Positions 15,137 through 34,750 of a stretch of 59,176 nt of DNA are shown piece after piece; positions within the stretch are counted from its first letter, which is position 1; each line of letters opens with the position of its first letter. Position numbers and translations under genes: made by a program. Location of the stretch: positions 1 through 59,176 of the IMG/VR virus record IMGVR_UViG_3300007513_002695; one strand, 5' to 3'. The DNA comes from a virus. Taxonomy: Duplodnaviria; Caudoviricetes. The notes beneath the pieces are model-generated. The model saw nothing but the letters and a program-made list of their open reading frames with translations. It had not been told where the DNA came from and did not search any database.

Positions 15137-15532
15137 TTAGGAAATAGTCAAAGCTACAGTGTGAAAATCCCCGGAAGAAAACTTTACAACAAAACTAGAA
15201 ATTATTTCAACGCCCTTTCGAGAAAATATCTTGTTTTCTCCAAACCTTATATTTAACTCTGAGAAGCGAGAATTTGAAAGTAGAGAGGAAATAAGCTCAT
15301 CTGATGAATTTAAAACTACTATAATTGAATTGTCTGGATTCTTTTCTATTTTAGTTATCCTAGACACATGCTCTTTCTTGGAGTCCTCAAGCAAATGACA
15401 AAAATATTCAGAAACAGATACTCTCTTATCTAGAGAAAAAGACATGGGATCTATAATCCCTGCTATGTCTTCACTTACTATAAATCGTTCTGAATTATTG
15501 AAATCTTTCATCATCAACGCCGTCTGCAGCAT
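15137..15532 (-). CDS. hypothetical protein
   Basis: 131-aa ORF on the coding strand. Confidence 0.6.
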   Translation of the reverse strand: MLQTALMMKDFNNSERFIVSEDIAGIIDPMSFSLDKRVSVSEYFCHLLEDSKKEHVSRITKIEKNPDNSIIVVLNSSDELISSLLSNSRFSELNIRFGENKIFSRKGVEIISSFVVKFSSGDFHTVALTIS

Positions 15533-15908
15533 AATAATAATCTACATCTTCATATACAAGATCTGCATACTCAGCAAGATTTTTATCTAGCTCTGTCACA
15601 GAGTTTAAATCCTGGGTAGTTGATTCTATTTTAACACTAAGGTGATCAATTGTAATAGTTGCATGATGCCTTATTTTCTCCTGATATATAAGCATGTCTG
15701 AAACAAAATCATACATTTTTCTAAAATCATTAAAAATGAAAGTCCTGGCAAGCCTGTCAGGATCTCTCAAGACTTCCCATCTAGAAGAGAGCGGATCAAT
15801 CGGGAGTGACTGAGACTCTTTGATAATTCTAGAAGAAATCCTTTTATCAGAAACGGAACTGACAGAGGCTGCGTTTTTTGCCTCAATGTCGAACTCTATT
15901 AATTTCAC
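15495..15908 (-). CDS. pterin-4-alpha-carbinolamine dehydratase family protein
   Basis: W....LARTFIFNDF....FV......EKIRHHATI......V...TT.D...VTELD..LA pattern of PCD/PhhB. Confidence 0.75.
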   Translation of the reverse strand: MKLIEFDIEAKNAASVSSVSDKRISSRIIKESQSLPIDPLSSRWEVLRDPDRLARTFIFNDFRKMYDFVSDMLIYQEKIRHHATITIDHLSVKIESTTQDLNSVTELDKNLAEYADLVYEDVDYYYAADGVDDERFQ

Positions 15909-20181: not shown

Positions 20182-20895
20182 TTATCCTCTCATTGCTCCG
20201 TGTATTTTTTCTGCTCGAGAAAACCTGCTGCCAATTACATTCCAATTTAGCTCTTTCATCATAGCATACACATAAGTCTTTCTATCATTTAAATAATCTC
20301 TATAGTAAGAGTGCTCCCATGCATCCATAACAATTACAGGAAAAATTCCAATCATGTGGTTTAAGCTATGCAAGTCAACAACAGTGTTTACATATCTTTG
20401 AAGATACATGTGATATCCTGTTACAACCCAGCCGTTCCGTGCAGAAAGAGAGCATGCTATAAAATCTTTTTGCCAAGCGTCAAAAGATCCAAAGTCTCTT
20501 TCAAGTCGCATGTATGGAATAGAGTCCATTGCTATTTCGCTTCTAAGATCACTAATATTTGCAAAATAAAGCTCATGAAGCCAAAGCGCATTAAGATTAT
20601 AAGACTCATCTATTTTAAGAGATCTAAATGCTGAGTGATTTAAATTTGCCTCTTCTCTGTTGGCGGTATCAAGCTCAGCGCTTACTCTATTAAAAGCATT
20701 AACATAGCTGTCGTAAAGCTCTTTATGAGAAACCTTGTTTTTCTGACTAAGAAACTCTGTCTTTAGATCAAACGGTTTTGTCTGAGCAACATAGTTCTCT
20801 TTTAGAACTTTAGAGTCAGAGTGCCCAGGGTTGCTATCAATCCCCAGAGACTCTCTTATAATGTTTGCTACTTCTAAATTTTTTATATCTGACAT
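20182..20895 (-). CDS. sod: Fe/Mn superoxide dismutase family protein with N-terminal extension
   Basis: SHKELY..YV, LHELYF, FGSFDAWQKDF, GWVV, MDAWEHSYY.DY; four metal ligands present. Confidence 0.88.
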   Translation of the reverse strand: MSDIKNLEVANIIRESLGIDSNPGHSDSKVLKENYVAQTKPFDLKTEFLSQKNKVSHKELYDSYVNAFNRVSAELDTANREEANLNHSAFRSLKIDESYNLNALWLHELYFANISDLRSEIAMDSIPYMRLERDFGSFDAWQKDFIACSLSARNGWVVTGYHMYLQRYVNTVVDLHSLNHMIGIFPVIVMDAWEHSYYRDYLNDRKTYVYAMMKELNWNVIGSRFSRAEKIHGAMRG

Positions 20896-21243: not shown

Positions 21244-21660
21244 TTAGTCAATGCTATGTTGCCTTACTTTGACCCCGGCATCTGATAAAATACCCAGGCC
21301 TGATATATCCCTGTACTCTTCTAAAAATACCACCTCTTTTATGCCAGAGTTGATTATCGATTTTGCGCACATTCTACATGGAGAAAGTGTGACATATAGA
21401 ATCTTATCTTTTGGATTGTTATAATCCATCTTGAGAAGAGCATTAATTTCTGCATGAATAAGCCCAGACTCCCCCGGGAAGTCTGACTCAGGCTCGTTTG
21501 GTCCGCCGGCATAGTTTCCATTATACCCAACTGAAAGAACCTGGGTGTTGTCTGTTGTAACAATTATAACTCCAACCTGGTGCCTCGGATCGCAAGATCT
21601 CCCAGCAATCGTCTTTGCAGTTTTAATCCAGACTGTATCCCAGGTCGGCCTACTGATCAC
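21244..21660 (-). CDS. dCMP deaminase
   Basis: RPTWD, RS.D...QVG, GYNG, HAEINA, SPCRMCAKSIINSGI. Confidence 0.92.
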   Translation of the reverse strand: MISRPTWDTVWIKTAKTIAGRSCDPRHQVGVIIVTTDNTQVLSVGYNGNYAGGPNEPESDFPGESGLIHAEINALLKMDYNNPKDKILYVTLSPCRMCAKSIINSGIKEVVFLEEYRDISGLGILSDAGVKVRQHSID

Positions 21661-22580
21661 TATTTTTTATCTTCAGGTTTGACGGACTGTGTAGTCTCGC
21701 TTTTCTTTCTAGTCTGTCTCTTCTTAGTGACCTTAGCTTTTTCCGGTTTGTCAAACAGGTCTTCAACATGTTTGTTTTTGGGAAGTTGAAAACCAGCTGC
21801 TTTCTTGTGGCCGCCTCCGCCGAATTTCTTTGAAATCTCTGAAACGTCTACAGCTTCGTGAAAAGCTCGGAGGCTTACTTTTGTCTCCTTGGATTCATGA
21901 TCCCAATACCATATCATGGCAAAGTCGCAGTCCGGAGCAAGACGAGCACCGATCTCTGACATCCAGTGAGATGAATTTACAACAAGAACATCTTTGCTAT
22001 CTAGCTTTCTCTTAGAAGCTTTTTCACATACCTTCTTGACAACAGTCTTGCTATATGCTAGAATATAAGAACCCCGCTTGCATGCGTCGTCAAAGACTGA
22101 ATCATCTTCAAACTTTTCAAACTCTTCAAACTCAAATGGCACCATGTCAAATGCTGCACTAAACTCTTTTGAGTATTCAAGCTCCCACTTCCACAAATCT
22201 CTATCTTGAATGTATTTAATAAATTTAGGAGGCTCTTTTCCTGGATGAAAAAATTCCCAAGATAAAATTGCACCAGATTTTGTCATATCAAAATGAGTGT
22301 TAGCAATATCATGTAGCTCGACCATCGCCGACTTATGGTGATCTATTACAAGAAGAGAATTAGAATCTTCAATCATCTGCTTTGTAGTTGCATTTCCAAA
22401 CGAAAAATCCAAGATTACAACGTTTTTTCCTTTGACATTTGGCGGAGGCGTACCGTGCTTGCATGGATGATACTCAGCTCGGTTTCCAAGCAATTTCCAT
22501 GCCGAGTAGGCAGCACCAAAACCATCAGTGCAATCTGCATGATAAATGACGCAGTTTACAGATGTTGGTTCGTTAATCAT
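21660..22580 (-). CDS. DHH/DHHA1 family phosphoesterase
   Basis: YHADCTDG, LDFS, IDHHKS, QDRDLW, SLRA, GGGGHKKAAGF. Confidence 0.9.
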   Translation of the reverse strand: MINEPTSVNCVIYHADCTDGFGAAYSAWKLLGNRAEYHPCKHGTPPPNVKGKNVVILDFSFGNATTKQMIEDSNSLLVIDHHKSAMVELHDIANTHFDMTKSGAILSWEFFHPGKEPPKFIKYIQDRDLWKWELEYSKEFSAAFDMVPFEFEEFEKFEDDSVFDDACKRGSYILAYSKTVVKKVCEKASKRKLDSKDVLVVNSSHWMSEIGARLAPDCDFAMIWYWDHESKETKVSLRAFHEAVDVSEISKKFGGGGHKKAAGFQLPKNKHVEDLFDKPEKAKVTKKRQTRKKSETTQSVKPEDKK

Positions 22581-23148
22581 CTCTTCCTCTTTGATTCATG
22601 AAATCATGGTATTCCCAGCACCGAGGCTCATACAAATCAGAGCCACCTACAGTAATCTCTGCGCCGGAATACTTTCTATGTGTATAGTATGCATCCTTCC
22701 CTGTAACAGTGCACACAGCTGGGCAGATTTCTATTTTAGTCGCCCAGGGCATCATGTCTCTAATTTCTTCAAAAATATTTCCTGTTGCAGAAAGCTGAAG
22801 AGAAGAGACAACAATGGACATTCCCTCTCTAAACAGCTTCAATAATGCGCCTGCAACACCATCTATCATAAATGCTTCATCCACAGCAATAACATCGAAT
22901 GTCTCTCCGGATCCATAAATATATTCTAACATATCTTCTCCAGAGTTTACACCAATTCCTGGAAGTCTTCCTCCTGAATGTGTGGCAATTTCAACATCAG
23001 AATATCTATCATCCATAATAGGTTTAAAAGCTATTATTTTTTTATTTTGATACCTGTATCTGTCAACTGCTGCTAGAAGCCTAGTAGTCTTAGATCCAAA
23101 CATTGGCCCAGTAAAAATAATAAATTCAGGATCTAAAGTAATTTTCAT
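22573..23148 (-). CDS. tdk: thymidine kinase
   Basis: TGPMFGSKTT, KP..DDRY, IATHSG, VDEA, VGG.DLYEPRC; start placed at ATG 23148. Confidence 0.88.
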   Translation of the reverse strand: MKITLDPEFIIFTGPMFGSKTTRLLAAVDRYRYQNKKIIAFKPIMDDRYSDVEIATHSGGRLPGIGVNSGEDMLEYIYGSGETFDVIAVDEAFMIDGVAGALLKLFREGMSIVVSSLQLSATGNIFEEIRDMMPWATKIEICPAVCTVTGKDAYYTHRKYSGAEITVGGSDLYEPRCWEYHDFMNQRGRDD

Positions 23149-23149
23149 C

Positions 23150-23566
23150 CTATGCTCTTCCATAGTCATCTTCTATTCTCTCGGGGAGATCCTGATTATT
23201 GTTTCCTATTTCTATAATCTCACAATCTGTTATGGCTTCAATCCTATACGGACAACAAGACTGAACTAGCAGAGTGTTACCCGACTTCATCCTTTTCACT
23301 TGAATTGGATGGGCAACAGCATCAGATATAGAAAGCTCATTTCCAAAAGTTACTTCTGCTTCTCCGGAAACTAAAAAAAGAACCTCATTTTTTAACTTAT
23401 GATATTTAAAACTAGTCCTATGACCAGCATTTATATAAAGTAGCTTACCATGAACACCGTCAAATCCCGACCAAGATTTCTCACTCCCCCAGGGTTTTTC
23501 TTTTGTGACGGGGGGCCCTTTAGTTATCCAGCTAGATTTTACATGTTTTGAAATTTTATATGACAC
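23150..23566 (-). CDS. cupin-domain protein (mannose-6-phosphate isomerase C-terminal-like)
   Basis: EKPWGSE, KLLYI..GHRTS..YH..KNE.LFLVSG. Confidence 0.75.
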   Translation of the reverse strand: MSYKISKHVKSSWITKGPPVTKEKPWGSEKSWSGFDGVHGKLLYINAGHRTSFKYHKLKNEVLFLVSGEAEVTFGNELSISDAVAHPIQVKRMKSGNTLLVQSCCPYRIEAITDCEIIEIGNNNQDLPERIEDDYGRA

Positions 23567-24603
23567 TAATCATCTCCCGGCATTCTAAGTATGTGCGGAG
23601 TTCCCTCCAAATGACCAGAGGGTGTCTGAGTCCCCCATCTGGCAACAACTGAAATTTCTGATAATTTTCTAGCCCCCATATATGACATTCCGCTTCTTAT
23701 CCCTGATTGGAAATTTCTAATAATATTTCTTACAGGGCCTTTTACTGTAACAGTAGTTTTTACTCCCTCACCAACGGGCAGGTCATTACTATTTCTATTA
23801 TTTCTATCTACCATCGCTGCAGTTGAAGCCATGCCCCGAAAGACCTTATAATCTTTTCCGTTTGTAGTGATAGTTTCACCGGGAGTTTCATCAGTCCCAG
23901 ACAGTAAACTTCCCACCATAATAAAATCTGACCCTGCTGAAAGAGCCTTGACTGCATCCCCAGAGGATCTTATCCCTCCGTCAGCTATGATTTGTACTCC
24001 TAGTGTATCTGCAATTTCACAGCATTCAAGAAGACAAGTAAACATGGGGACACCATGACCAGTAATCACTCTAGTTGAGCAACAAGAGCCTCCACCAATT
24101 CCAACCTTAATACAATCTGCTCCCCACGCAGACAAATCGGCAACAGCGTCAGGTGTAGCAACATTTCCTGCAACTATATAAATGGAATCCCCAAATGTGT
24201 TCCTCATTACCCTGAGAGTATGTCTCATCATAGTGCTATGTCCATGTGCTATATCTACAATAAAATTTCTAGCTCCGGCAGCATACAGGGCACGGGCTCT
24301 TTTTAAATCTATTTCATTTACCCCGACTGAAACGAGACAGTCAGCACCAGAATCAACTACTTCTTTATATTCTTTTACTGCTTGTTCTATTGGGGTAAAT
24401 CTATGTAATGCACCGACAGCACCAGCTTTAAACATCTCAATTGCCATCTTTGGACCCGTAACTGTGTCCATATTAGAAGAAATAACTGGGACATCAAGAT
24501 TGATACTTCCAATCTGCGCTGACGTATCTAGTTCTGACCTAGACAGGCAATCTGTCATTTGCGGAACTAAGAAGACGTCGTTAAACGTATAATAGGTTTT
24601 CAT
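23566..24603 (-). CDS. IMP dehydrogenase / GMP reductase family (no CBS domains)
   Basis: TFNDV.LVP, SSNMDTVT, VDIAHGHS, AGNVAT, KVGIGGGSCCSTR, IADGGI, FRGMAS; start placed at ATG 24603. Confidence 0.92.
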   Translation of the reverse strand: MKTYYTFNDVFLVPQMTDCLSRSELDTSAQIGSINLDVPVISSNMDTVTGPKMAIEMFKAGAVGALHRFTPIEQAVKEYKEVVDSGADCLVSVGVNEIDLKRARALYAAGARNFIVDIAHGHSTMMRHTLRVMRNTFGDSIYIVAGNVATPDAVADLSAWGADCIKVGIGGGSCCSTRVITGHGVPMFTCLLECCEIADTLGVQIIADGGIRSSGDAVKALSAGSDFIMVGSLLSGTDETPGETITTNGKDYKVFRGMASTAAMVDRNNRNSNDLPVGEGVKTTVTVKGPVRNIIRNFQSGIRSGMSYMGARKLSEISVVARWGTQTPSGHLEGTPHILRMPGDD

Positions 24604-24604
24604 G

Positions 24605-25606
24605 CTACGAAAGATCCCACCATTCAACTGTTCTCTCTAGCCCCTCCCAGAGTCTCACCTTAGGATCATACCCAAGTCGATCTCTAGCTGCAGAAATATC
24701 TGCCTGTGTATGCATAACATCGCCTGGCCGCCAAGGTGCATCCACAACCTCAGAGTTTGGAAATTTTTCTTTAAAATAGTCTAATATTTCCCTATTAGAA
24801 GTTCTATCACCGCAGGCAATATTGTAACATTCGCCCCTAAACTTTCCAGAAGCTTCAGCAGCCAAAACATTGGCATCCACAGTGTTATCTACATAGCAAA
24901 GGTCACGTGTCTGTGCCCCGTCTCCATCTGATCTCATTTGAGTTCCTAGTTTAATTGCATTGCACCAGGCAGAAATAGCTGTCGAATAAGGTGAATCTCC
25001 CCTCTGCCCAGGACCGAAAACATTAAAATATCTAAGACAAACAATATCCATATCATATAAATTTGAAAAAACTTTGGCAACATCTTCAATGGCTGATTTT
25101 TGCCAAGCGTAGGGAGACTTTGGATCTTTCGAATAAGTCTCAGAAGTCGGAAGAACGTCAGCGCCGCCGTACACAGAAGAAGAAGAGGCAAAAATAAACC
25201 TATCTATTTTCCCCCTGCAGGCTTCAAGAAGCCTAACAGTTCCAGCAATATTTACATCTGTTGTTACCGAAGGATTTTCAACAGAATATAAAACTCTTGG
25301 AATAGCTGCCTGATGAAAGACAACATTGTATTCTCCGCCCGCTATTCTTTGCAATATTCCCGAATGAGAAAAATCATCTGATATAACAAGCACGTCGTGA
25401 TTGCTTGGTTTTTGATTATTTATTTTTTCAAAATCTCTTAAGAAAGAAGCGTTAGGTAATACTCTAATTTTTAAACCTTCAAGATTTTCCAAATAACCGT
25501 TTGAAAGATTATCTACAACATCTACAGACCACCCCTCAGAAACAAGTCTTTTTGTTAAATTAGAACCTATAAACCCACACCCACCTGTAACTAAACATTT
25601 TTTCAT
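24605..25606 (-). CDS. NAD-dependent nucleotide-sugar epimerase/dehydratase (extended SDR)
   Basis: VTGGCGFIGSNL, FHQAA, ASSSSVYG, SPYAWQK (YxxxK), LRYFNVFGP, GDG.QTRD. Confidence 0.93.
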   Translation of the reverse strand: MKKCLVTGGCGFIGSNLTKRLVSEGWSVDVVDNLSNGYLENLEGLKIRVLPNASFLRDFEKINNQKPSNHDVLVISDDFSHSGILQRIAGGEYNVVFHQAAIPRVLYSVENPSVTTDVNIAGTVRLLEACRGKIDRFIFASSSSVYGGADVLPTSETYSKDPKSPYAWQKSAIEDVAKVFSNLYDMDIVCLRYFNVFGPGQRGDSPYSTAISAWCNAIKLGTQMRSDGDGAQTRDLCYVDNTVDANVLAAEASGKFRGECYNIACGDRTSNREILDYFKEKFPNSEVVDAPWRPGDVMHTQADISAARDRLGYDPKVRLWEGLERTVEWWDLS

Positions 25607-25636: not shown

Positions 25637-26575
25637 TTAGCACACCGGGTTAATATAATTCAAAATATGGGCAGAATTAAAATTAAGCCTAACTTGAACT
25701 GACTCCAGATCTGTCATAACACCCAGCCTATTAAAAATCTGGCTAGATAAATAGTAAATGAAATTTAAATCATTCTCCAATTTTTCCGTTACGTTTGTTG
25801 ATCTCATGACTGCATGAATATCAAGAATTTTATCTCTAGCTGTGGCATGAATCAAGGAGATACAGGAATCATTAGTATAAATAAACCTTCTAGAAGAAGC
25901 AGTCTGAACTAAATTATATTCATTTTTTCCAGATATCTCATCCTCTATCTTTTTCATCATTCCGTAAAATATAGATTCATAGTATTCTCTTTCTGAAGGG
26001 GTTTTTAGAATGGAACTATCTACATTTTCGAAACCTGTATCCTCAAAAAATCGGAGACTTATTCCTGTTGCCTCTCTTCTTGGGCTAGCCCTGGCTAGCA
26101 TAGAGATCTCTTCAGAAATTCTAGATAGAGAAATATTTTCCCTTGACTCAACCAAAGAAATCAAATAGTCTCTTGTTTTCTCGGGACTAGAAAGATAATG
26201 TGAAGGAACTATTCGGACATTTGGCATATCTAACAAGCTTCCACACTCTGCGGAAAAAGCATCATAAACATTTTTTAGGGAATCTATGTCATGAATCTCA
26301 TCACCTCTTTTACTAAACCTCTCCTGAATAATCTTCCACTCTGGGACAAGGATTATAAAGACATTGTTTAAATCGAAAATCTCTCTTTTATAATCTGATC
26401 TTATTCCGGGTAAATCTCTATTATACATTTTAGCGAAAATTCTTCTAGATATTTGGGATCTATCCATTAGATGCCATCTGTATCCTGTTGAATCATGCAC
26501 ATTTTTAATAAGGGTGGTTTTTCCCGAACAATCGGGACCTTCAACAAAAATGTTGTGTGCCGGAAGTTTAATCAT
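25637..26575 (-). CDS. dNMP kinase fused to a thymidylate synthase/dCMP hydroxymethylase-like domain
   Basis: N-terminal VEGPDCSGKTT, MDRS.IS, RGDE; C-terminal DSCISLIH...RDKIL....MRSTNV....NDL...NSAHI. Confidence 0.7.
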   Translation of the reverse strand: MIKLPAHNIFVEGPDCSGKTTLIKNVHDSTGYRWHLMDRSQISRRIFAKMYNRDLPGIRSDYKREIFDLNNVFIILVPEWKIIQERFSKRGDEIHDIDSLKNVYDAFSAECGSLLDMPNVRIVPSHYLSSPEKTRDYLISLVESRENISLSRISEEISMLARASPRREATGISLRFFEDTGFENVDSSILKTPSEREYYESIFYGMMKKIEDEISGKNEYNLVQTASSRRFIYTNDSCISLIHATARDKILDIHAVMRSTNVTEKLENDLNFIYYLSSQIFNRLGVMTDLESVQVRLNFNSAHILNYINPVC

Positions 26576-26607: not shown

Positions 26608-29600
26608 TTAGATGTTTATCTGTCTCATTTTATATGATGAAGTGCTACATCCCCACGATTCTGTAGAGGCAACTTCAGCAAGCCAAATCGTATAGAGCTC
26701 AGGAATAATTTTAAACTTTGTCCACACTCTAAGCCACTTACTTTCTGAGTTATTGTCACAAACTCTCATCTTATAGAAAACTTTTCCATTCTTAGTCTCC
26801 TTTTCATGAATCTCTTGTATGCAAAACCATACCACATCTTTCATTTTTCCAGAAAGTGATGTAATAGGGTCTAGATCAGACTTTCTAATCCTCTCCATAA
26901 TTCTTGGAGGAAATACCAGTGACTCATCAGCTCCGGACATTAATTCAACACTCATCCCTATTTTAGCAGACCTTGACCAGTCCTTTACTGAATCTGTCTC
27001 TACTATTAGACTTGGAACATATTCATTGACATAGCCTTGCTGCTTCATCAATTTTTTATAAGCAGTCTTTGTCATGCCATACATTCCTTTCTTTAGTTGA
27101 TCATAATTTCCAACAATAATATCATATAACTGCCTATGATTAGAAATCTCTTTGCTCTGCATCTCTGACAGGCTTGAAAAAGCCTCTACCTTGCACAAAG
27201 AATCAAAACATGTCTTATTCATCTTAGAAGGTTTCCAGCCCCCTTCTTCGTTAAAAAGAACATCAGATAAGTCCCTATACGGCCTGTTAATCATAATTTC
27301 TTCTACGGCAGCATCACCGACGCCCTTAATTGCTGTAAGGGGAGGAACAAACCCTTCTCGATCTTCACTATACACCCAGACATCGGACGATGCATTGATG
27401 TCAGGTGGGAGAATTGTATATCCTAGTGATTTAATTTCTGATATAACTTTTCCGAATTTATTAGTACCATTCTGAGTCTGAAGGCATGTTGCTAGCCATT
27501 CCTTTTCATAGTAGGAGTGAAGCCATGCAGAGTAATAAGAATCAATGGCGTAAGACACAGCATGAGACTTGTTGAAGCCATACCCAGAAAAGAATTCAAT
27601 TGTCTCATATAGCTTCTCTGCCTTGGCTTGATCCATTCCAGATACCTCGACAGCACCGCTAACAAACTTCTTTCGAAGATCAATTCTCTCCTGAACTTTC
27701 GCTGCATTTGAATCAAGAGACTTCTTAACCAAAGTTTTTCTCATTTTATCAGATGCACCCTTGTCAAAGTTGGCGAGCTTCTGCGCCAAAAGCATGAACT
27801 GCTCCTGGAATGAAATAAATCCATATGTCTCGCTTAGAATCTCCTCAATAACAGGATGATCATATTTAATCGGATTTCCATCCTCAACAGACTTCTTAGC
27901 TCTCACATACTTCCGATGAACACCGGCTGCCAGGGGTCCGGGACGATAAATTGCAGTAATAGTTGCTAGCTCTTCAATGGTTCTAGGTTTAGCAGCCATG
28001 CAAAAATTTCTTGCACCCTGTTGGGTAAACTGAAACACTTGAACAAATCTTCCTCTGTGATAGACATGCTCCCAGACCCTCTGGTCATCCAGGTTGTTAT
28101 ATCTACAATTCATGTTATCATCAAAGAATTTATGAATATCGTCAAATGTAGGTGAAGGATTTCCTTGTTTTCTTAGAATTAGCCTAATACAATCTTCAAC
28201 CATTTTAAGAGTTGTCAGCCCTAAGAAATCAAACTTAAGAAAACCATTTGGCTCAAGGTGTCTAAAATTCATTCCTTCAGACCACGGCGTCTGTAACTCT
28301 CCTCGGACCTTAATCACTGGCATATATTTTTCAAGATCAGGGCAGATTAAAACACCGCCAGCATGTCTTCCAATTGATCTTGACTCCATAAATAGATTTT
28401 GAACATGCTCTCTTACTTTGGGATATTCATCCATGAACTCAACATACTTAGATGAATACCTCATACAATCTTCATGTGTAAGGACATACGTCGATCTTTC
28501 TTCGTGATCTCCCATTGCTTTGTGCATGACATCTTTTTCTAAAGTATTTGTCATCGAATTGACTTCACTAAAGTCAATCCCATAAAACTTTGAAACGTCT
28601 TTAATAAGAGATTTAAGCTTCAGTGTATTAAAGTTAGAAACGGGAACAACGGACTCTTCTCCAAAAAGTTGTCTTGAGGCATCGATTAATACATCCCTGT
28701 CTCCTGCATCAGTATCAATATCAGGCCACCCAGCCTTTGTTCGGTGGAGAAATCTTTCCCACAAGAGGCCGTATTTAATTGGATCTGTAGTCGTAATCCC
28801 CAGGAGATAATTTACCAAAGACCCGGCGCCAGATCCTCGACCTGGTCCGATAATAGTTTCCTTAGACGCAAGATCAAATACCTTTGTCATAGTCAAAAAG
28901 TAATTTTCAAACCCAAGGTATTTAATATCTTCAAGCTCCATTTTAGTTCTTTCAACATATTCTTGTTTTACATGTAGTCCCTCATCTATCAGTGATTGCC
29001 TGACTCTTTTTACAAGTTGATTAAAAGCAGAATTACCAGGTTCATCAAATGTTGGAAGCTTAGCCTCTTCATCAAACCAAACCTCATCACACTGATCCCA
29101 CGCAATATCGTGTGTCCTTTCAATAGCATCGCAAATTAATTGATCTTTACCTTGATAAAAGTCATAATCTGGAACGTGCTTTTTATATTCTTCCCACATT
29201 TGCTCTGCATTCTTGGGATAAAGTTCACACTTTAAATCTTCAAATGCAGGAAGTGAGGGCATGTCATCACCTCTTGCGCCCATTCTCCCGAGCTTTCGAT
29301 AAAGCTCACGAGCTTCCCACATGTCACGACTATAATAATGACTATCAGCAGTTGCAACAAGCGGAATCCCGGTTTTTTCATGCAGTGAGATAAGATGCTT
29401 ATTCGTCTTATGCTGCATCGATAGAGAATTAAACTGAATCTCAAGATTAAAGTTCTTCTCACCAACAGCATCTACGAATCTATCAGACATGTTTTCAAGA
29501 TCTCTAAGGATTTCTACATTAGATTTTCCAAGAGCCTCTCCCCTTGCGATCAAAGAAGCAGGATAGCCCCCGATACACGCTGTGCTTACAATCAATCCTT

Positions 29601-30174
29601 CTCCGTGAAGATTGAGCATATTGTAGTCAATTCTTGGAAACCTATAAAACCCGTCGGTATAAGACTTTTTAACTAGTGTAAAAAGATTCTGCAAGCCCTT
29701 CTGATTCTTGGCAAAAACTACAAGATGATAGCGTCGCTTCCAGTCGTTTTTTTCAAAGTCTGCCTTGGTCTCGTCTTCATCTTCAATTACAAGCCCACCG
29801 GAGATTTCATCCTCAGAATTAATATCTGTAGATTCCCTCGCCTTTTTCTCACTGCGAGCAGCGCGAACTTCTTCTCTATGTTTTTCATAAGAAATCCTCC
29901 ACTCAGAAAGCGAGGGAACAAAATAAAACTCTACACCGTAAAGCTGTCTATATTTTCTACCCTGCTTTTTAAGCTTTTTTGCATATGTATGCGCGTGTGC
30001 AAGACCGTTTCCATTTCCATGATCTGTTAAAGCCCAGGCATCCATCCCGTTGGATAGAACAAAATCAATATGTTGATTCGGATACCCCAAACCATCATAC
30101 GGAGATCCCGTCCCGCAATGTGCGTGCAACCCAACAAATCTTGACGGAATGATTAGCTTCCCATTTTTTGACAT
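26608..30174 (-). CDS. dnaE: DNA polymerase III alpha subunit (DnaE family)
   Basis: PHP (LHAH, ALTDHG, TADSHY), GPGRGSGAGSL, PDIDTD, GRHAGGV, KFDFLGL, YGFNKSHAVSY. Confidence 0.97.
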   Translation of the reverse strand: MSKNGKLIIPSRFVGLHAHCGTGSPYDGLGYPNQHIDFVLSNGMDAWALTDHGNGNGLAHAHTYAKKLKKQGRKYRQLYGVEFYFVPSLSEWRISYEKHREEVRAARSEKKARESTDINSEDEISGGLVIEDEDETKADFEKNDWKRRYHLVVFAKNQKGLQNLFTLVKKSYTDGFYRFPRIDYNMLNLHGEGLIVSTACIGGYPASLIARGEALGKSNVEILRDLENMSDRFVDAVGEKNFNLEIQFNSLSMQHKTNKHLISLHEKTGIPLVATADSHYYSRDMWEARELYRKLGRMGARGDDMPSLPAFEDLKCELYPKNAEQMWEEYKKHVPDYDFYQGKDQLICDAIERTHDIAWDQCDEVWFDEEAKLPTFDEPGNSAFNQLVKRVRQSLIDEGLHVKQEYVERTKMELEDIKYLGFENYFLTMTKVFDLASKETIIGPGRGSGAGSLVNYLLGITTTDPIKYGLLWERFLHRTKAGWPDIDTDAGDRDVLIDASRQLFGEESVVPVSNFNTLKLKSLIKDVSKFYGIDFSEVNSMTNTLEKDVMHKAMGDHEERSTYVLTHEDCMRYSSKYVEFMDEYPKVREHVQNLFMESRSIGRHAGGVLICPDLEKYMPVIKVRGELQTPWSEGMNFRHLEPNGFLKFDFLGLTTLKMVEDCIRLILRKQGNPSPTFDDIHKFFDDNMNCRYNNLDDQRVWEHVYHRGRFVQVFQFTQQGARNFCMAAKPRTIEELATITAIYRPGPLAAGVHRKYVRAKKSVEDGNPIKYDHPVIEEILSETYGFISFQEQFMLLAQKLANFDKGASDKMRKTLVKKSLDSNAAKVQERIDLRKKFVSGAVEVSGMDQAKAEKLYETIEFFSGYGFNKSHAVSYAIDSYYSAWLHSYYEKEWLATCLQTQNGTNKFGKVISEIKSLGYTILPPDINASSDVWVYSEDREGFVPPLTAIKGVGDAAVEEIMINRPYRDLSDVLFNEEGGWKPSKMNKTCFDSLCKVEAFSSLSEMQSKEISNHRQLYDIIVGNYDQLKKGMYGMTKTAYKKLMKQQGYVNEYVPSLIVETDSVKDWSRSAKIGMSVELMSGADESLVFPPRIMERIRKSDLDPITSLSGKMKDVVWFCIQEIHEKETKNGKVFYKMRVCDNNSESKWLRVWTKFKIIPELYTIWLAEVASTESWGCSTSSYKMRQINI

Positions 30175-32401: not shown

Positions 32402-33376
32402 TTAATCTTCCTTGTATGATAACTCTAGAAGCCTTATCTCATCTAGAGTCTTATTCCAGTATTGTCTAAACTTGGTATTACCATCCTGCTCTTCTTCAGG
32501 CGGATTGATTCCGTTTAAGTCATATCGATGGGCCTGATAGATTGTATCATTGGGGTGATATTCAATATGATTATCACTGTCTGAGTCAGGCCAATAGAGG
32601 TTTGTTCCTGTCCCAGCCCTGACGTTCTTAATATAGTGCCATGCAGGGCTTGCGAGAGTATTTGTTCCAATAACAGCACTGGCCTCTGGAAGAACTTTAA
32701 TAATAGCGTGGGCCATCTTTGCTGCAATTAAGTTATCAACTGTGGGTTGAATTTGCTTATCAGATCTCTGCTTAACAAACCCGATAATATCTTTTAGATT
32801 AAATCGACCGTAATAAAAAGTTGATAGACATTTTGGAAGGATAGTTCTTGCATCCATCATAGAAATCTGCTTGGTATCGACCATGTCTGCGTAAAGCTGC
32901 TTAGCATCCTCAACGTGTCGTCGCCAGCGGCGGTAGAGCTCTGGGCTGTTCTCGACAGCACTTGGGACAAGGCAAGGCTCGTGATGAAGGAATCTATCAC
33001 CAGTGCACTGAGCGGCCCATGAACCTGCACGATGTCGAATGAGATGTGTAACAGTCTGAAGATCTATACCTGCAAACTTAAACGTAAAGCTAAAGATCTC
33101 CATCGGAGTGGGCAATGCCCTAAAGCAAAGGACATCTTCAAGATTCTCACTAAGCTCTGCCTGTGGGACACCTGTTGGATCTGTGACCTCTGGGGTGTCT
33201 GCCCAAGTTGCCTTAACGTATCTCCACGCAACGTCTCTCATTTGCTCAGCTGTGGGATGATCAACAAGCTCAACCTGTAATGCATCGAGATCATTGAGAA
33301 ATTCAGTCGTGGGTTCTTCATCAAACCTAAGGGACATAGGAAGATTAACGGGTTCTAAGTTTTTATTTTGTGGCAA
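32402..33376 (-). CDS. thyX: FAD-dependent thymidylate synthase (ThyX) family, divergent
   Basis: TPME..SFTF...GI....THLIRHRAGSWAAQC, DARTILP, N......F...R. Confidence 0.75.
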   Translation of the reverse strand: MPQNKNLEPVNLPMSLRFDEEPTTEFLNDLDALQVELVDHPTAEQMRDVAWRYVKATWADTPEVTDPTGVPQAELSENLEDVLCFRALPTPMEIFSFTFKFAGIDLQTVTHLIRHRAGSWAAQCTGDRFLHHEPCLVPSAVENSPELYRRWRRHVEDAKQLYADMVDTKQISMMDARTILPKCLSTFYYGRFNLKDIIGFVKQRSDKQIQPTVDNLIAAKMAHAIIKVLPEASAVIGTNTLASPAWHYIKNVRAGTGTNLYWPDSDSDNHIEYHPNDTIYQAHRYDLNGINPPEEEQDGNTKFRQYWNKTLDEIRLLELSYKED

Positions 33377-34319
33377 TTTGAGTCTCCTTAAGATTGCGTA
33401 TTAGATTATAGACCAGTCTTGGATCTTTGTATAGTGTAACTTTTGAAATATTTTTTAATTCTTGGTTATAGCTTTTTACTGGAGAGAGGACTTCAACGCT
33501 GTGCTTGGCATATTCAGAAGCGTGCTTTGCTGAATCATCAATCGCGCAAACAACCCGATCTTCATCATAAAAATCCCTTTGAACAAGCCATCTAAACTTT
33601 TCAGGAGAAAAATCTAGATGGTGAAATTTTACACCGGCTTGTGATATCCAGTGAAAAGTATCATGCAAGCATGTGATATTATCTTTCGGTCTAGCTGTCA
33701 ATATTTGAATCCAAAACCCATCATCATAAAGCTTGTTAATAACATCGATCATCTCTCTATCGGGTCTAATGCTTCTGAGGCCGCCTGCTAGAATGAATTC
33801 TTGAAAAACACCCTCGGGTAAAAGTCCGGCTTCCTTTACTTCTTTTGTACTATAATACTCTGTAGAATTAGGGTCAGTAAAAACCCCCTTCTCATCTCTT
33901 AGCCAATCTGTAAAGTCCTCCCTAAAACAATTCAGAACATCGTCCATGTCAACTATAAGAACAGGCTGACCATTCCAAACGTTCTTTTCCATCTCATATC
34001 GTGTATGAAGATAGAGATCCTTGTTCCAAAAAGCATTTATAAAATCTTCTGTATCAAATCCCCACATATTTAATGTCGCAAGAAGGTACCTGAAAGTATC
34101 CACAGACTTATATAAAATCCTCTCTCTGTCAACCTCTCTCTTGACAAGCCTGTGGTCTTTAAAGTTAACAGAATTTGCAAGGTTTGTAACCTCGGCATGC
34201 AAAGCCAGGGCAAAAGACTTTGTCATCTCTTCACGGTCTTGATCAGAAAGATTCTCATTATTAAAAAATAAAGAAGAAAATTCTTTCTGTCGCTGAAACA
34301 TCTCGTCGATTATAGGCAA
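33363..34319 (-). CDS. degenerate dimeric-dUTPase-like domain fused to HAD 5'(3')-deoxyribonucleotidase
   Basis: N-terminal domain paralogous to 34373..34750; C-terminal IVDMDDVL, ILTARP, T..WI, AIDDS. Confidence 0.75.
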   Translation of the reverse strand: MPIIDEMFQRQKEFSSLFFNNENLSDQDREEMTKSFALALHAEVTNLANSVNFKDHRLVKREVDRERILYKSVDTFRYLLATLNMWGFDTEDFINAFWNKDLYLHTRYEMEKNVWNGQPVLIVDMDDVLNCFREDFTDWLRDEKGVFTDPNSTEYYSTKEVKEAGLLPEGVFQEFILAGGLRSIRPDREMIDVINKLYDDGFWIQILTARPKDNITCLHDTFHWISQAGVKFHHLDFSPEKFRWLVQRDFYDEDRVVCAIDDSAKHASEYAKHSVEVLSPVKSYNQELKNISKVTLYKDPRLVYNLIRNLKETQIATK

Positions 34320-34341
34320 TTTGATCTCCTTTCCATATTAA

Positions 34342-34370
34342 ATTATAAAACATCTTTAAATGATTTTACA
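34342..34370 (-). promoter_or_regulatory. promoter TGTAAA-N17-TATAAT
   Basis: Upstream of 33363..34319; SD AAGGAG follows. Confidence 0.65.
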
Positions 34371-34372
34371 AT

Positions 34373-34750
34373 TTAATATCCTGATCGGACTCTCTCCCTT
34401 ATAACCCTATCTTTCTTTTCATAGGCGTCAAATAATTCTTCAGAAGAAACCCCGACGAGAACTAAAACAGATAAAAAATAATTAAAGGCATCAACTATTT
34501 CCTCTAGAAACTCTTCTCTATTAAACTCTGTTACCTCTGTTAGCCTATGTGGTTTCCAGTTTTTTAGATGCTGCAATGCTTCAAACATTTCCTCAACCCC
34601 TCGGAGCGCCATATCTCTAATATGCTGCTGCGATTCTTTGTCACCCAAATCCACGGGCCACGATGGTCCGATATCTGATTTTTTTTGCTTCAAGGTCTTC
34701 ATAAAGCTCTCCCTCAGGAAGAACATTGAATCAAGCCTGTCTTTACTCAT
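34373..34750 (-). CDS. dimeric (all-alpha) dUTPase/dCTPase
   Basis: EEMFEA (ExxE), WKPH, EEIVD.FNYF (ExxD), Y.KK..VI..R...GY as in T4 gp56 and dUTPase_2 families. Confidence 0.85.
   Translation of the reverse strand: MSKDRLDSMFFLRESFMKTLKQKKSDIGPSWPVDLGDKESQQHIRDMALRGVEEMFEALQHLKNWKPHRLTEVTEFNREEFLEEIVDAFNYFLSVLVLVGVSSEELFDAYEKKDRVIRERVRSGY

Follow-up and report, generated by a model that had tools for sequence, protein, structure and literature searches.

A P-loop kinase fused to a minimal thymidylate synthase fold in marine jumbo phages, a candidate modified-dCMP synthase/kinase

Base modifications in phage DNA decide which restriction, CRISPR and other defences act on it, and the enzymes involved are also a source for biotechnology. 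To our knowledge, every known pre-replicative pyrimidine modification starts with a full-length homologue of thymidylate synthase (TS). The virus record IMGVR_UViG_3300007513_002695 of IMG/VR raises the question of what a far shorter version of this fold does when it is joined to a nucleotide kinase. The window analysed is the whole record (59,176 nucleotides; completeness 20% by CheckV), and the gene in question lies at 25637–26575 on the minus strand, as does every other window feature located below; the open reading frame (ORF) has an ATG start and encodes 312 amino acids (aa). An initial annotation had described it as a deoxynucleoside monophosphate (dNMP) kinase fused to a minimal domain resembling deoxycytidine monophosphate (dCMP) hydroxymethylase (dCH), and as a sign of a modified-cytosine genome. 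On balance, the protein has about an even chance of being a bifunctional modified-dCMP synthase/kinase with non-classical chemistry.

A homologue search in 5.8 billion proteins gave 132 hits at E ≤ 1e-3 among 686 candidates, and all but 5 of the 120 homologues listed span 295–317 aa, with a query coverage of 96–100%. IMG/VR contained 103 relatives, and gene content was counted in 80 of these 103 loci by BLAST against the window ORFs, covering genes ≤10 kb from the fused gene. It was called as an ORF, beside DnaE, in 79 of the 80 related jumbo-phage loci. The fusion is a core gene of this marine T4-like jumbo lineage. In G003, a complete relative of 284 kb, the capsid, portal, sheath and baseplate genes are of T4 type, which identifies the lineage as uncultured marine jumbo myoviruses that are T4-like and replicate with DnaE, their DnaE showing less than 32% identity to the closest cultured one. 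Parts of the window were present in 7 marine or seawater DNA sequencing runs, all as contigs.

The AlphaFold2 model of the whole fusion, built like the family profile on an alignment of 36 homologues, had a predicted local distance difference test score (pLDDT) of 93.2 and a pTM of 0.89. Its N-terminal domain (residues 1–147; 26135..26575) was recognized by profile, structure and PHROG matches as a P-loop kinase of the YorR/dNMP kinase type. The family profile matched YorR of the Bacillus subtilis prophage SPbeta (2axp/3kb2) with E 6.2e-8, and VIA alignment of the model to 3kb2 gave Z 13.7 and a root mean square deviation (rmsd) of 2.8 over 141 aligned residues (model residues 7–153). Alignments to deoxyadenosine, dTMP and GMP kinases reached Z 11–13.6, and the domain also matched phrog_761 "thymidylate kinase" (E 1.2e-9). 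Translation confirmed the P-loop GPDCSGKTT (G13–T21; 26513..26539), in which G13, D15, G18 and K19 are invariant, and the DRS motif at residues 38–40 (26456..26464) with invariant D38-R39, as the initial annotation had read them. The latter is presumably the acceptor-nucleotide site of kinases of the deoxynucleoside kinase/thymidylate kinase (dNK/TMK) type. A LID-like RFSKRGD (26300..26320; R86, R90, G91 and D92 invariant) aligned to RLRVRGDE of YorR. K19, D38, R39, R86 and R90 are invariant in 36/36 homologues, and the P-loop GxxxxGK(T/S), the DR(S/Y) acceptor motif, the Arg-rich LID and the fold were all found: the N-terminal domain is a complete kinase. The P-loop, DR(S) and RxxxRGD align with YorR and dNK/TMK kinases; YorR, however, is a stand-alone protein of 173 aa, whereas here the kinase domain is fused and forms part of a predicted dimer interface. 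YorR, too, is encoded by a prophage with a polymerase of the DnaE type.

The C-terminal domain (residues 148–312; 25640..26134) was identified by VIA, Foldseek, hhalign and ESM Atlas as a minimal TS fold, hereafter mini-TS. The top Foldseek matches in the PDB were the dCMP hydroxylase AfhB of phage HY126 (9iqu, E 3.4e-7; and 9iqc, the complex with flavin adenine dinucleotide and dCMP) and the T4 dCMP hydroxymethylase, with ThyA and MilA ranking below them. VIA alignment of model residues 148–310 gave Z 12.1 for MilA (5b6e; 143 aligned, rmsd 3.5), 11.9 for AfhB 9iqu (144 aligned) and 11.1 for Lactobacillus casei TS, with 143–144 of ∼163 residues aligned across the three, whose scores are tied (within 1). 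At the sequence level, the 36-member family profile matched T4 dCMP hydroxymethylase 1b49 with E 0.001, and the C-domain profile alone matched T4 gp42 with E 0.0013 and AfhB with E ∼0.01. Against E. coli ThyA, T4 gp42 and RB69 gp48 together, hhalign gave a probability of 95.2% (E 2.9e-8); against the single sequences it gave 93.8% for T4 gp42 (E 1.7e-7), 90.9% for RB69 gp48 (E 1.1e-6) and 56.5% for E. coli ThyA (E 1.1e-4). A TS profile of eight homologues run over the window matched the fused gene alone (E 2.3e-5), and the ESM Atlas feature search placed the domain in the TS/dCMP hydroxymethylase cluster (0.93). The fused protein had no match to PF00303 Thymidylat_synt at E ≤ 0.1 (gathering cut-off 24.3 bits), and Pfam, NCBIfam and PHROGs held no model covering the C-terminal domain, phrog_35203 (function not assigned) matching weakly. 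The likeness to gp42 proposed in the initial annotation was reproduced, with C238, R258-S259, D269 and H303 aligned to C148, R168-S169, D179 and H216 of 1b49. The C-terminal domain adopts a TS fold whose nucleophile and nucleotide-binding residues are intact. BFVD returned no viral protein with both domains (best TMq 0.38), and titles and abstracts of the literature beyond PMC13326640 did not describe a kinase::mini-TS fusion or a truncated TS family.

In the window and five jumbo records, PF00303 matched nothing (0/6). Since PF00303 had also missed a divergent TS-like gene in another phage locus (L099), a broader TS profile was used; it gave one match in the window and in 4/5 jumbo records, in frames of 303–327 aa, and none in G001. 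By coordinates the match lay inside the fused gene in the window and G003, and in the other three records it lay at or near that locus, in frames of 303–317 aa. The fusion is the lineage's sole detectable TS-fold gene.

Residue conservation was evaluated in 80 sequences (79 loci and the window protein) and compared with E. coli TS (EcTS). E195, R229, C238, R247, R258, S259, D269 and H303 are identical in 80/80. By hhalign, C238 (25862..25864) corresponds to the catalytic Cys (EcTS C146, T4 gp42 C148), and R229-R230 (25886..25891; R230 conserved in 79/80) to EcTS R126-R127, the phosphate clamp contributed to the partner subunit, preceded by S228 at EcTS S125. R258-S259-T260-N261 (25793..25804) aligns with EcTS R166-S167-C168-D169, so that N261 represents a D169N state. 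D269 (25769..25771), 11 residues after R258, occupies the cytosine-specifying position (EcTS N177, T4 gp42 D179), and K265 aligns with G173. S301-A302-H303 (25667..25675) falls in the region of EcTS H207 and, tentatively, T206; H303 aligns with H207, and the SAH triplet is common to RB69 gp48. The stretch DSCIS...RSTN...D...NSAHI spans residues 236–304. The sequence EREYY (25979..25993), with E195 and Y198/Y199, is a proposed counterpart of EcTS E58-x-x-W61 by motif reading rather than tool alignment. Two positions vary: among the 80 relatives residue 261 is split between N (36), D (36) and E (8), and none of the eight commonest residues at position 265, which between them account for all 80 sequences, is Gly. 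At the position of EcTS L143, where the signature of 5-hydroxy-dCMP synthases has an acidic residue, the register of the shortened loop is uncertain, the candidates being the residue three before the Cys (N235; of 80 sequences, 34 have D and 3 have E) and two before it (D236; D in 46, E in 14). The earlier reading that the Cys, the RS pair and the Asp 11 residues after the Arg are retained, and that the Asp of RSxD and the Gly are replaced, thus holds in the window protein. Because the nucleophile, the acid, the Arg clamps and the Asp are invariant over hundreds of divergent sequences, we argue for a working active site for a cytosine 2'-deoxy-mononucleotide.

The mini-TS domain is ∼165 aa long, as against 246 aa in T4 gp42 and 264 aa in E. 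coli ThyA. Compared with the latter, ∼10 residues are missing before E58, 34 of 68 between E58 and R126, 11 of 19 between R127 and C146, and 48 of 57 after H207, where only 9 residues follow H303. The initial annotation had noticed the absence of much of the N-terminal folate-binding part; the loss in fact extends over four places, with the C-terminal tail the largest. In ThyA, W80 and W83 stack the folate and the C-terminal tail helps to hold it. No Trp is found between E195 and R229 (segment placement by our own motif alignment), and the folate-contact features of TS/dCH enzymes, i.e., Asp169, Gly173, the Trp80/Trp83 segment and the C-terminal tail, are absent from the window protein. Like E. 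coli and L. casei ThyA, the domain shows the core beta-sheet, the sheet dimer, the Cys nucleophile and the Arg clamps, but it differs in the Asp for Asn177, in the missing folate-binding elements and ∼100 residues, and in its weaker profile similarity. T4 gp42 (1b49/1b5d/6a9a) is closer: both have the TS fold, and the Cys, the two Arg-containing clamps (RR and RS), the "IRD"-strand Arg, the Asp at N177 and the His before the last strand align. The mini-TS differs in a variable D169 equivalent, a residue other than Gly at 173, the lack of Y218 and a truncated C-terminus. The CMP hydroxymethylase MilA, with the highest VIA score, is a protein of 318 aa that acts on a ribonucleotide in antibiotic synthesis; it has Asp at the N177 position (PMC13326640).

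The oligomeric state was evaluated by structure prediction. Two full-length copies were predicted to pair with a score of 0.88, the best of 3 controls scoring 0.00; among proteins of solved structure, 20 of 30 one-chain pairs reach that mark, as does 1 of the 23 single chains. At least 86% of contacts agreed between runs, with a partner pLDDT of at least 89. The predicted interface consists of the TS beta-sheet (residues 229–259 and 294–303) and part of the kinase domain (31–65), and R229 of one copy would touch R258' and S301' of the other, as TS architecture requires. Since TS dimers are solved structures, the prediction may show likeness to them rather than proof.

These features are consistent with a homodimeric, bifunctional enzyme of the phage deoxypyrimidine pathway, the dimer being predicted. 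The mini-TS domain would bind a dCMP-type mononucleotide, with the phosphate held by R258/S259 and by R229'/R230' of the partner, the 3'-OH by H303 and the cytosine by D269 and an E195 network. C238 would add to C6, making C5, or a group already present at C5, reactive. The second reactant is probably not methylene-tetrahydrofolate bound in the classical manner, because ∼100 residues are missing, position 261 drifts between N, D and E, and Gly173 is replaced. The fused YorR-like kinase would then phosphorylate the product to the diphosphate, and host nucleoside diphosphate kinase followed by DnaE would insert it into DNA; it is the constant coupling to a kinase that points to a product rebuilt towards the triphosphate. 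The analysis established the fold, the residues and how well they are conserved, the synteny and the range of the family, whereas cytosine specificity, non-folate chemistry, the order of the steps and the modified DNA are what we infer.

If one reaction is to be singled out for the window protein, O2/flavin-type 5-hydroxylation of dCMP appears the likeliest, though as a tentative guess that leans towards the doubtful. It is favoured because N261, the non-Gly residue at 173, SAH and the short C-terminus resemble RB69 gp48 and HY126 AfhB. The EcTS positions C146, N177, L143 and D169 are discussed in PMC13326640, and D169N with N177D is the published signature of 5-hydroxy-dCMP synthases (PMC13326640; Lee et al., 2026); in RB69 gp48, SAH, a non-Gly residue at 173 and a short C-terminus occur alongside (PMC13326640, and our alignment). 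Both D169N and N177D are found in the window protein (N261, D269), which in these respects is like HY126 AfhB, RB69 gp48 and DLP3 gp80. Those synthases differ in their length of 217–238 aa, ∼70 residues more, and in keeping Y94-G95, and their diagnostic Asn alternates with Asp and Glu in the mini-TS family. A YorR- or TMK-like kinase neighbours the TS homologue in the DLP3, RB69 and RL38JI clusters (PMC13326640); unlike in the RB69 cluster, the mini-TS kinase is fused and is not close to RB69 gp45.

The link to cytosine modification was evaluated in the wider family. The C-domain profile was compared with 1.84 billion representatives, giving 425 matches at E ≤ 0.001 and 172 at E ≤ 1e-10, and the best 150 of the 425 were examined. 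Among these are stand-alone mini-TS proteins, 165–220 aa long, which share the invariant residues (E, Y, R, C, S, R, RS, D and H); 17/17 of the stand-alone proteins have both the nucleophilic Cys and the E195 equivalent. Fusions to more distant kinases (P0228, P0231, P0233 and P0238) were present among the matches listed. Nine stand-alone loci were recovered (L099–L102, L103–L105 and L108–L109), of which L101 repeats L100 and L109 measures 1.2 kb, and the neighbours were examined in seven.

In one group of these loci, from T4-like phages with PolB (group B: L103, L104, L105 and L108, the short L109 being left out of the count), the mini-TS gene directly follows a gp42-type dCH gene in 4/4 loci with upstream sequence, the two genes overlapping by 4 nucleotides in L105 and by 1 in L108. 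This gp42 orthologue has RSND, Gly173 and Asp177 and matches PF00303 with E 1e-20 to 1e-22. The clusters include a TMK-like kinase, found together with the mini-TS in L103, L104 and L108, and either an alpha-glucosyltransferase (AGT, E 1.6e-56) with a C5-methyltransferase-like gene or an alternative set of RB69-like gp51 and gp52:53 (nucleotidyltransferase and APH) genes. The remaining loci have other arrangements. L102 has the order TS-like (RSID, Asp177), ThyX-like, 332-aa protein, TMK-like kinase and mini-TS, the last two overlapping. L099 shows TS-like (RSLN, Asp177), 307-aa protein, mini-TS, NT5C and kinase::dUTPase_2, in which a kinase of the same kind as the fused one is joined to a dUTPase_2 nucleoside triphosphate (NTP) pyrophosphatase (L099:7146–8126). 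L100, a complete 81-kb genome without a PF00303 match, shows dCMP deaminase, 317-aa protein, mini-TS, NT5C and dUTPase_2. As the fusions shift between kinase, mini-TS, dUTPase_2 and NT5C, the kinase::mini-TS, kinase::dUTPase_2 and dUTPase_2::NT5C proteins tie four activities to one deoxynucleotide-pool pathway. In the T4 pathway, the gp56 dCTPase yields the monophosphate, gp42 modifies it and the gp1 dNMP kinase rebuilds the nucleotide. The logic is the same here, with NTP pyrophosphatase, TS-fold and kinase activities placed around the mini-TS genes in shifting fusions, but the kinase family differs from gp1, the TS part is minimal and an NT5C 5'-nucleotidase is added.

Because mini-TS genes adjoin gp42, AGT and arabinosylation-type genes in other phages, the family is tied to cytosine hypermodification, and a link to modified cytosine is supported by relatives that sit in real hypermodification clusters. 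Of the scheme in the initial annotation, namely dCMP modified by non-folate chemistry and then phosphorylated for DnaE, the non-folate chemistry remains plausible and the TS fold and complete kinase were borne out. The view of the family as simply a minimal hydroxymethylase fared less well, since these clusters encode a mini-TS on top of a full-length dCH of the gp42 type.

Two further features of these loci deserve mention. C5-cytosine DNA methyltransferase-like genes (L103:11156–11638, L104:8908–10203 and L105:3728–4966) stand beside AGT or sugar genes, odd company if cytosine were fully replaced by 5-hydroxymethylcytosine (hmC). The protein of 307–332 aa upstream of stand-alone mini-TS genes (L099:4997–5920, L100:4881–5834 and L102:3746–4744) has, by eye, an N-terminal GxGxxG-like beta-alpha-beta unit; 5 homologues were found, the AlphaFold2 pLDDT was 46.3, and profile matches to PDB and Pfam were insignificant.

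Several observations weigh against a bifunctional modified-dCMP synthase/kinase with its own primary chemistry. The mini-TS is still encoded where a full-length dCH is present (L103, L104, L105 and L108; TS-like genes also in L099 and L102), so in those phages the mini-TS is not the primary C5-modifying enzyme, and its role in the window may be a second step or another one. The published D169N signature may not transfer to the mini-TS family, because the 74%-identical relative P0002 has D at position 261 where the window protein has N, and such close relatives would be unlikely to differ in product. No counterpart of EcTS Y94 was found, the segment from the E195 helix to R229 having 34 residues versus 68. 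RB69 gp45 was rejected as an orthologue of the kinase domain, its alignment being limited to the P-loop (probability 82%, 23 columns). Library scans of the window detected neither a flavin reductase nor a glycosyltransferase, DNA glycosyltransferases included, which weakens the later glycosylation envisaged in the initial annotation. The sugar cluster of G003 (GT2, GT4, GT6, GT11 and GDP-mannose dehydratase) looks polysaccharide-type and lies far from the fused gene. Jumbo phages also carry dCMP deaminase, thymidine kinase (TK) and ThyX-type genes, as phages with ordinary DNA could. Finally, 50,697 phage records searched by tblastn with five queries (the window protein, P0249, P0256 and the mini-TS of L105 and of L100) gave no match to the C-terminal domain, Pelagibacter phage HTVC119P alone matching, and in the kinase half (E 3e-4); no cultured phage among those searched carries the domain.

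An alternative that we regard as unlikely, yet the best of the rivals, has the mini-TS catalyse a second step, on a dCMP that already carries a modification, such as 5-hydroxymethyl-dCMP. The Cys at C6 would expel the hydroxyl to give an exocyclic methylene, a nucleophile would capture it and the kinase would phosphorylate the product; in the jumbo phages another enzyme, e.g., the divergent ThyX-like protein described below, would take the first step. The position directly after dCH in all four group B loci, with overlapping genes in two, agrees with such a succession, an open and cofactor-poor active site, as the deletions imply, would suit a small reactant, and the window, G003 and L102 each have a divergent ThyX-like gene as well as the mini-TS. 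However, the complete 81-kb phage G005, which has a stand-alone mini-TS, shows no PF00303 match and no ThyX-like gene in a 9.6-kb neighbourhood; neither PF00303 nor the broader profile revealed another TS-fold gene in the jumbo records, and no nucleophile-supplying enzyme is conserved beside the gene. We know of no ThyX homologue that hydroxymethylates dCMP.

The pattern of what was lost and kept could also be read as a non-catalytic nucleotide-binding domain, which seems quite improbable. Such a domain would bind dCMP or modified dCMP as a specificity or allosteric module of the kinase, by pairing with or regulating a full-length TS homologue, or as a poison subunit of host ThyA. The loss of cofactor-binding parts with retention of nucleotide-binding residues, the constant association with a kinase and the retained dimerising sheet, for which hetero-dimers with a full-length homologue are conceivable, would all fit. 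Yet an invariant Cys and acid are not required for binding alone, and both C238 and E195 are kept in 80/80 sequences and in the 17/17 stand-alone proteins; moreover, a strong homodimer is predicted and the jumbo phages have no full-length TS partner.

A classical folate-dependent dCMP hydroxymethylase or methylase in miniature, which like T4 gp42 would form 5-hydroxymethyl-dCMP from methylene-tetrahydrofolate and have gp1-like phosphorylation fused to it, has little to recommend it, even though T4 gp42 is the best sequence match, the Cys, Glu, Asp and Arg clamps are kept, 36/80 sequences have D at 261 and the fusion is the only TS-fold gene of the jumbo lineage. The ∼100 missing residues include the C-terminal tail and half of the 59–125 segment, the shortened segment has no Trp, the D169 equivalent varies, G173 is replaced, PF00303 gives no match at E ≤ 0.1, and true gp42 orthologues coexist with the mini-TS elsewhere. 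Cofactor-free Cys chemistry that creates no new DNA base, such as hydrolytic deamination by way of the 5,6-dihydro adduct or loss of a C5 substituent for nucleotide salvage or destruction, would suit an exposed site offering a nucleophile, an Asp that protonates N3 and a network of Glu and water, frequent NT5C and NTP pyrophosphatase neighbours and the ready deamination of cytosine C6 adducts (as in C5-methyltransferases without S-adenosylmethionine), but it is highly improbable, as a zinc dCMP deaminase is already in the module (58/80 loci) and the kinase fusion suggests a product built up to the triphosphate.

The gene lies in a replication and nucleotide neighbourhood. Directly upstream is the DnaE-type DNA polymerase III alpha gene (26608..30174; 1188 aa; homologue in 80/80 loci), and directly downstream an NAD-dependent sugar epimerase/dehydratase gene (24605..25606; PF01370 E 8.8e-48; TviC/GalE-like, below NCBIfam cut-offs; 60/80 loci). 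The order is dnaE, fused gene, epimerase, GMP-reductase-like, cupin and TK, with gaps of 32 nucleotides after dnaE and 30 before the epimerase and no terminator-like site between them on the minus strand, much as the initial annotation had it. TK (22573–23169; 65/80 loci), a DHH phosphoesterase (21660–22580; 52/80) and dCMP deaminase (21244–21660) form a same-strand nucleotide module (21244..23169). In more distant jumbo members TK follows the fused gene directly, without the epimerase between. The other loci counts of 80 were 57 for superoxide dismutase (SOD), 28 for ThyX-like, 22 for GMP-reductase-like and 19 for cupin genes. The epimerase and cupin were also considered as members of the pathway, as the initial annotation had implied, and were rejected because they do not accompany the gene beyond the jumbo lineage: no NAD-dependent epimerase or cupin Pfam match was listed for the scanned ORFs of L099, L100, L102, L103, L104 and L105.

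Further along the window are a divergent ThyX-like gene (32402–33376; 324 aa; Pfam E 1.2e-16) and, by library scans, a dUTPase_2::NT5C fusion (33363–34319) and a dUTPase_2 NTP pyrophosphatase (34373–34750); the activities of this stretch (32402..34750) also flank stand-alone mini-TS genes in L099, L100 and L102. The separate ThyX of the initial annotation is present as a ThyX-type gene, but a divergent one at 37.6 bits against the NCBIfam thyX cut-off of 87.9, and its product may do something other than make dTMP. G003 has both ThyX types (L085:6689–7657 and L097:973–1737), one of them canonical (E 5.4e-51), and a 326-aa protein like the divergent form lies beside the TS-like gene of L102 (L102:2788–3768). 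The dUTPase_2::NT5C fusion is likewise found in G003; the pyrophosphatases could be the dCTPase/dUTPase of the pathway. Pterin-4a-carbinolamine dehydratase (15495–15908), core to the jumbo lineage, was tried as a partner and set aside as a lineage trait because it is present in the window and 5/5 jumbo records but in 0/5 from other mini-TS phages, among which a single record is complete; a Pfam scan of G003 showed no pterin-dependent hydroxylase.

Other genes in the window encode sigma-70, GroEL, ClpP, ribonucleotide reductase, DnaB, FEN, RecA, a gp32-like protein, nucleoside deoxyribosyltransferase and Fpg. The Fe/Mn SOD gene (20182–20895) lies within the same-strand nucleotide module, unusual company for replication genes. 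Between epimerase and TK are the GMP-reductase-like gene, of the inosine monophosphate dehydrogenase/GMP reductase type without CBS (23566–24627), and the small cupin (23150–23566; phrog "cysteine dioxygenase", E 1e-15). In several of the loci L045, L047, L049, L052, L069, L074, L076 and L080, DnaE was called as two ORFs with an insert ORF of ∼60–340 aa, and in others of them ORFs of ∼700–1025 aa separate DnaE from the fusion; inteins or homing elements are the probable explanation. The G003 sugar cluster spans L090:5310 to L091:10016 and L092:6866–11321 and also holds GT1/GT4 genes (one matching "GT4 in conflict systems"), epimerases, radical SAM, carbamoyltransferase and transaldolase genes. 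G003 carries in addition the PrkA-DUF444-SpoVR trio, phosphoenolpyruvate carboxykinase, adenylosuccinate synthetase and peptide deformylase.

What stands out is a TS fold pared down to the core that binds the nucleotide and carries the nucleophile, and coupled to a kinase, in a family of 425 representative clusters. The mini-TS is the sole TS-fold gene in a cosmopolitan marine jumbo lineage and an unexplained extra gene beside gp42 in hmC-type clusters. The fold, the residues and the cluster context together suggest an unusual base in the phage DNA. If active, the enzyme would either yield a modified cytosine not seen before or add a step to pathways already known, and would show how far the TS scaffold can shrink. 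A bolder proposal, which we consider rather unlikely, is that the reduced fold has shed its folate site and performs new chemistry on cytosine mononucleotides; the candidates, to be held with similar reserve, are a cofactor-light oxidative or substitution reaction, or conversion of 5-hydroxymethyl-dCMP through an exocyclic methylene intermediate to a new 5-substituted dCMP. Were it true, a new cytosine derivative would be present in the DNA of widespread marine T4-like jumbo phages replicating with DnaE, and the hmC pathways of some T4-like phages would have an extra step.

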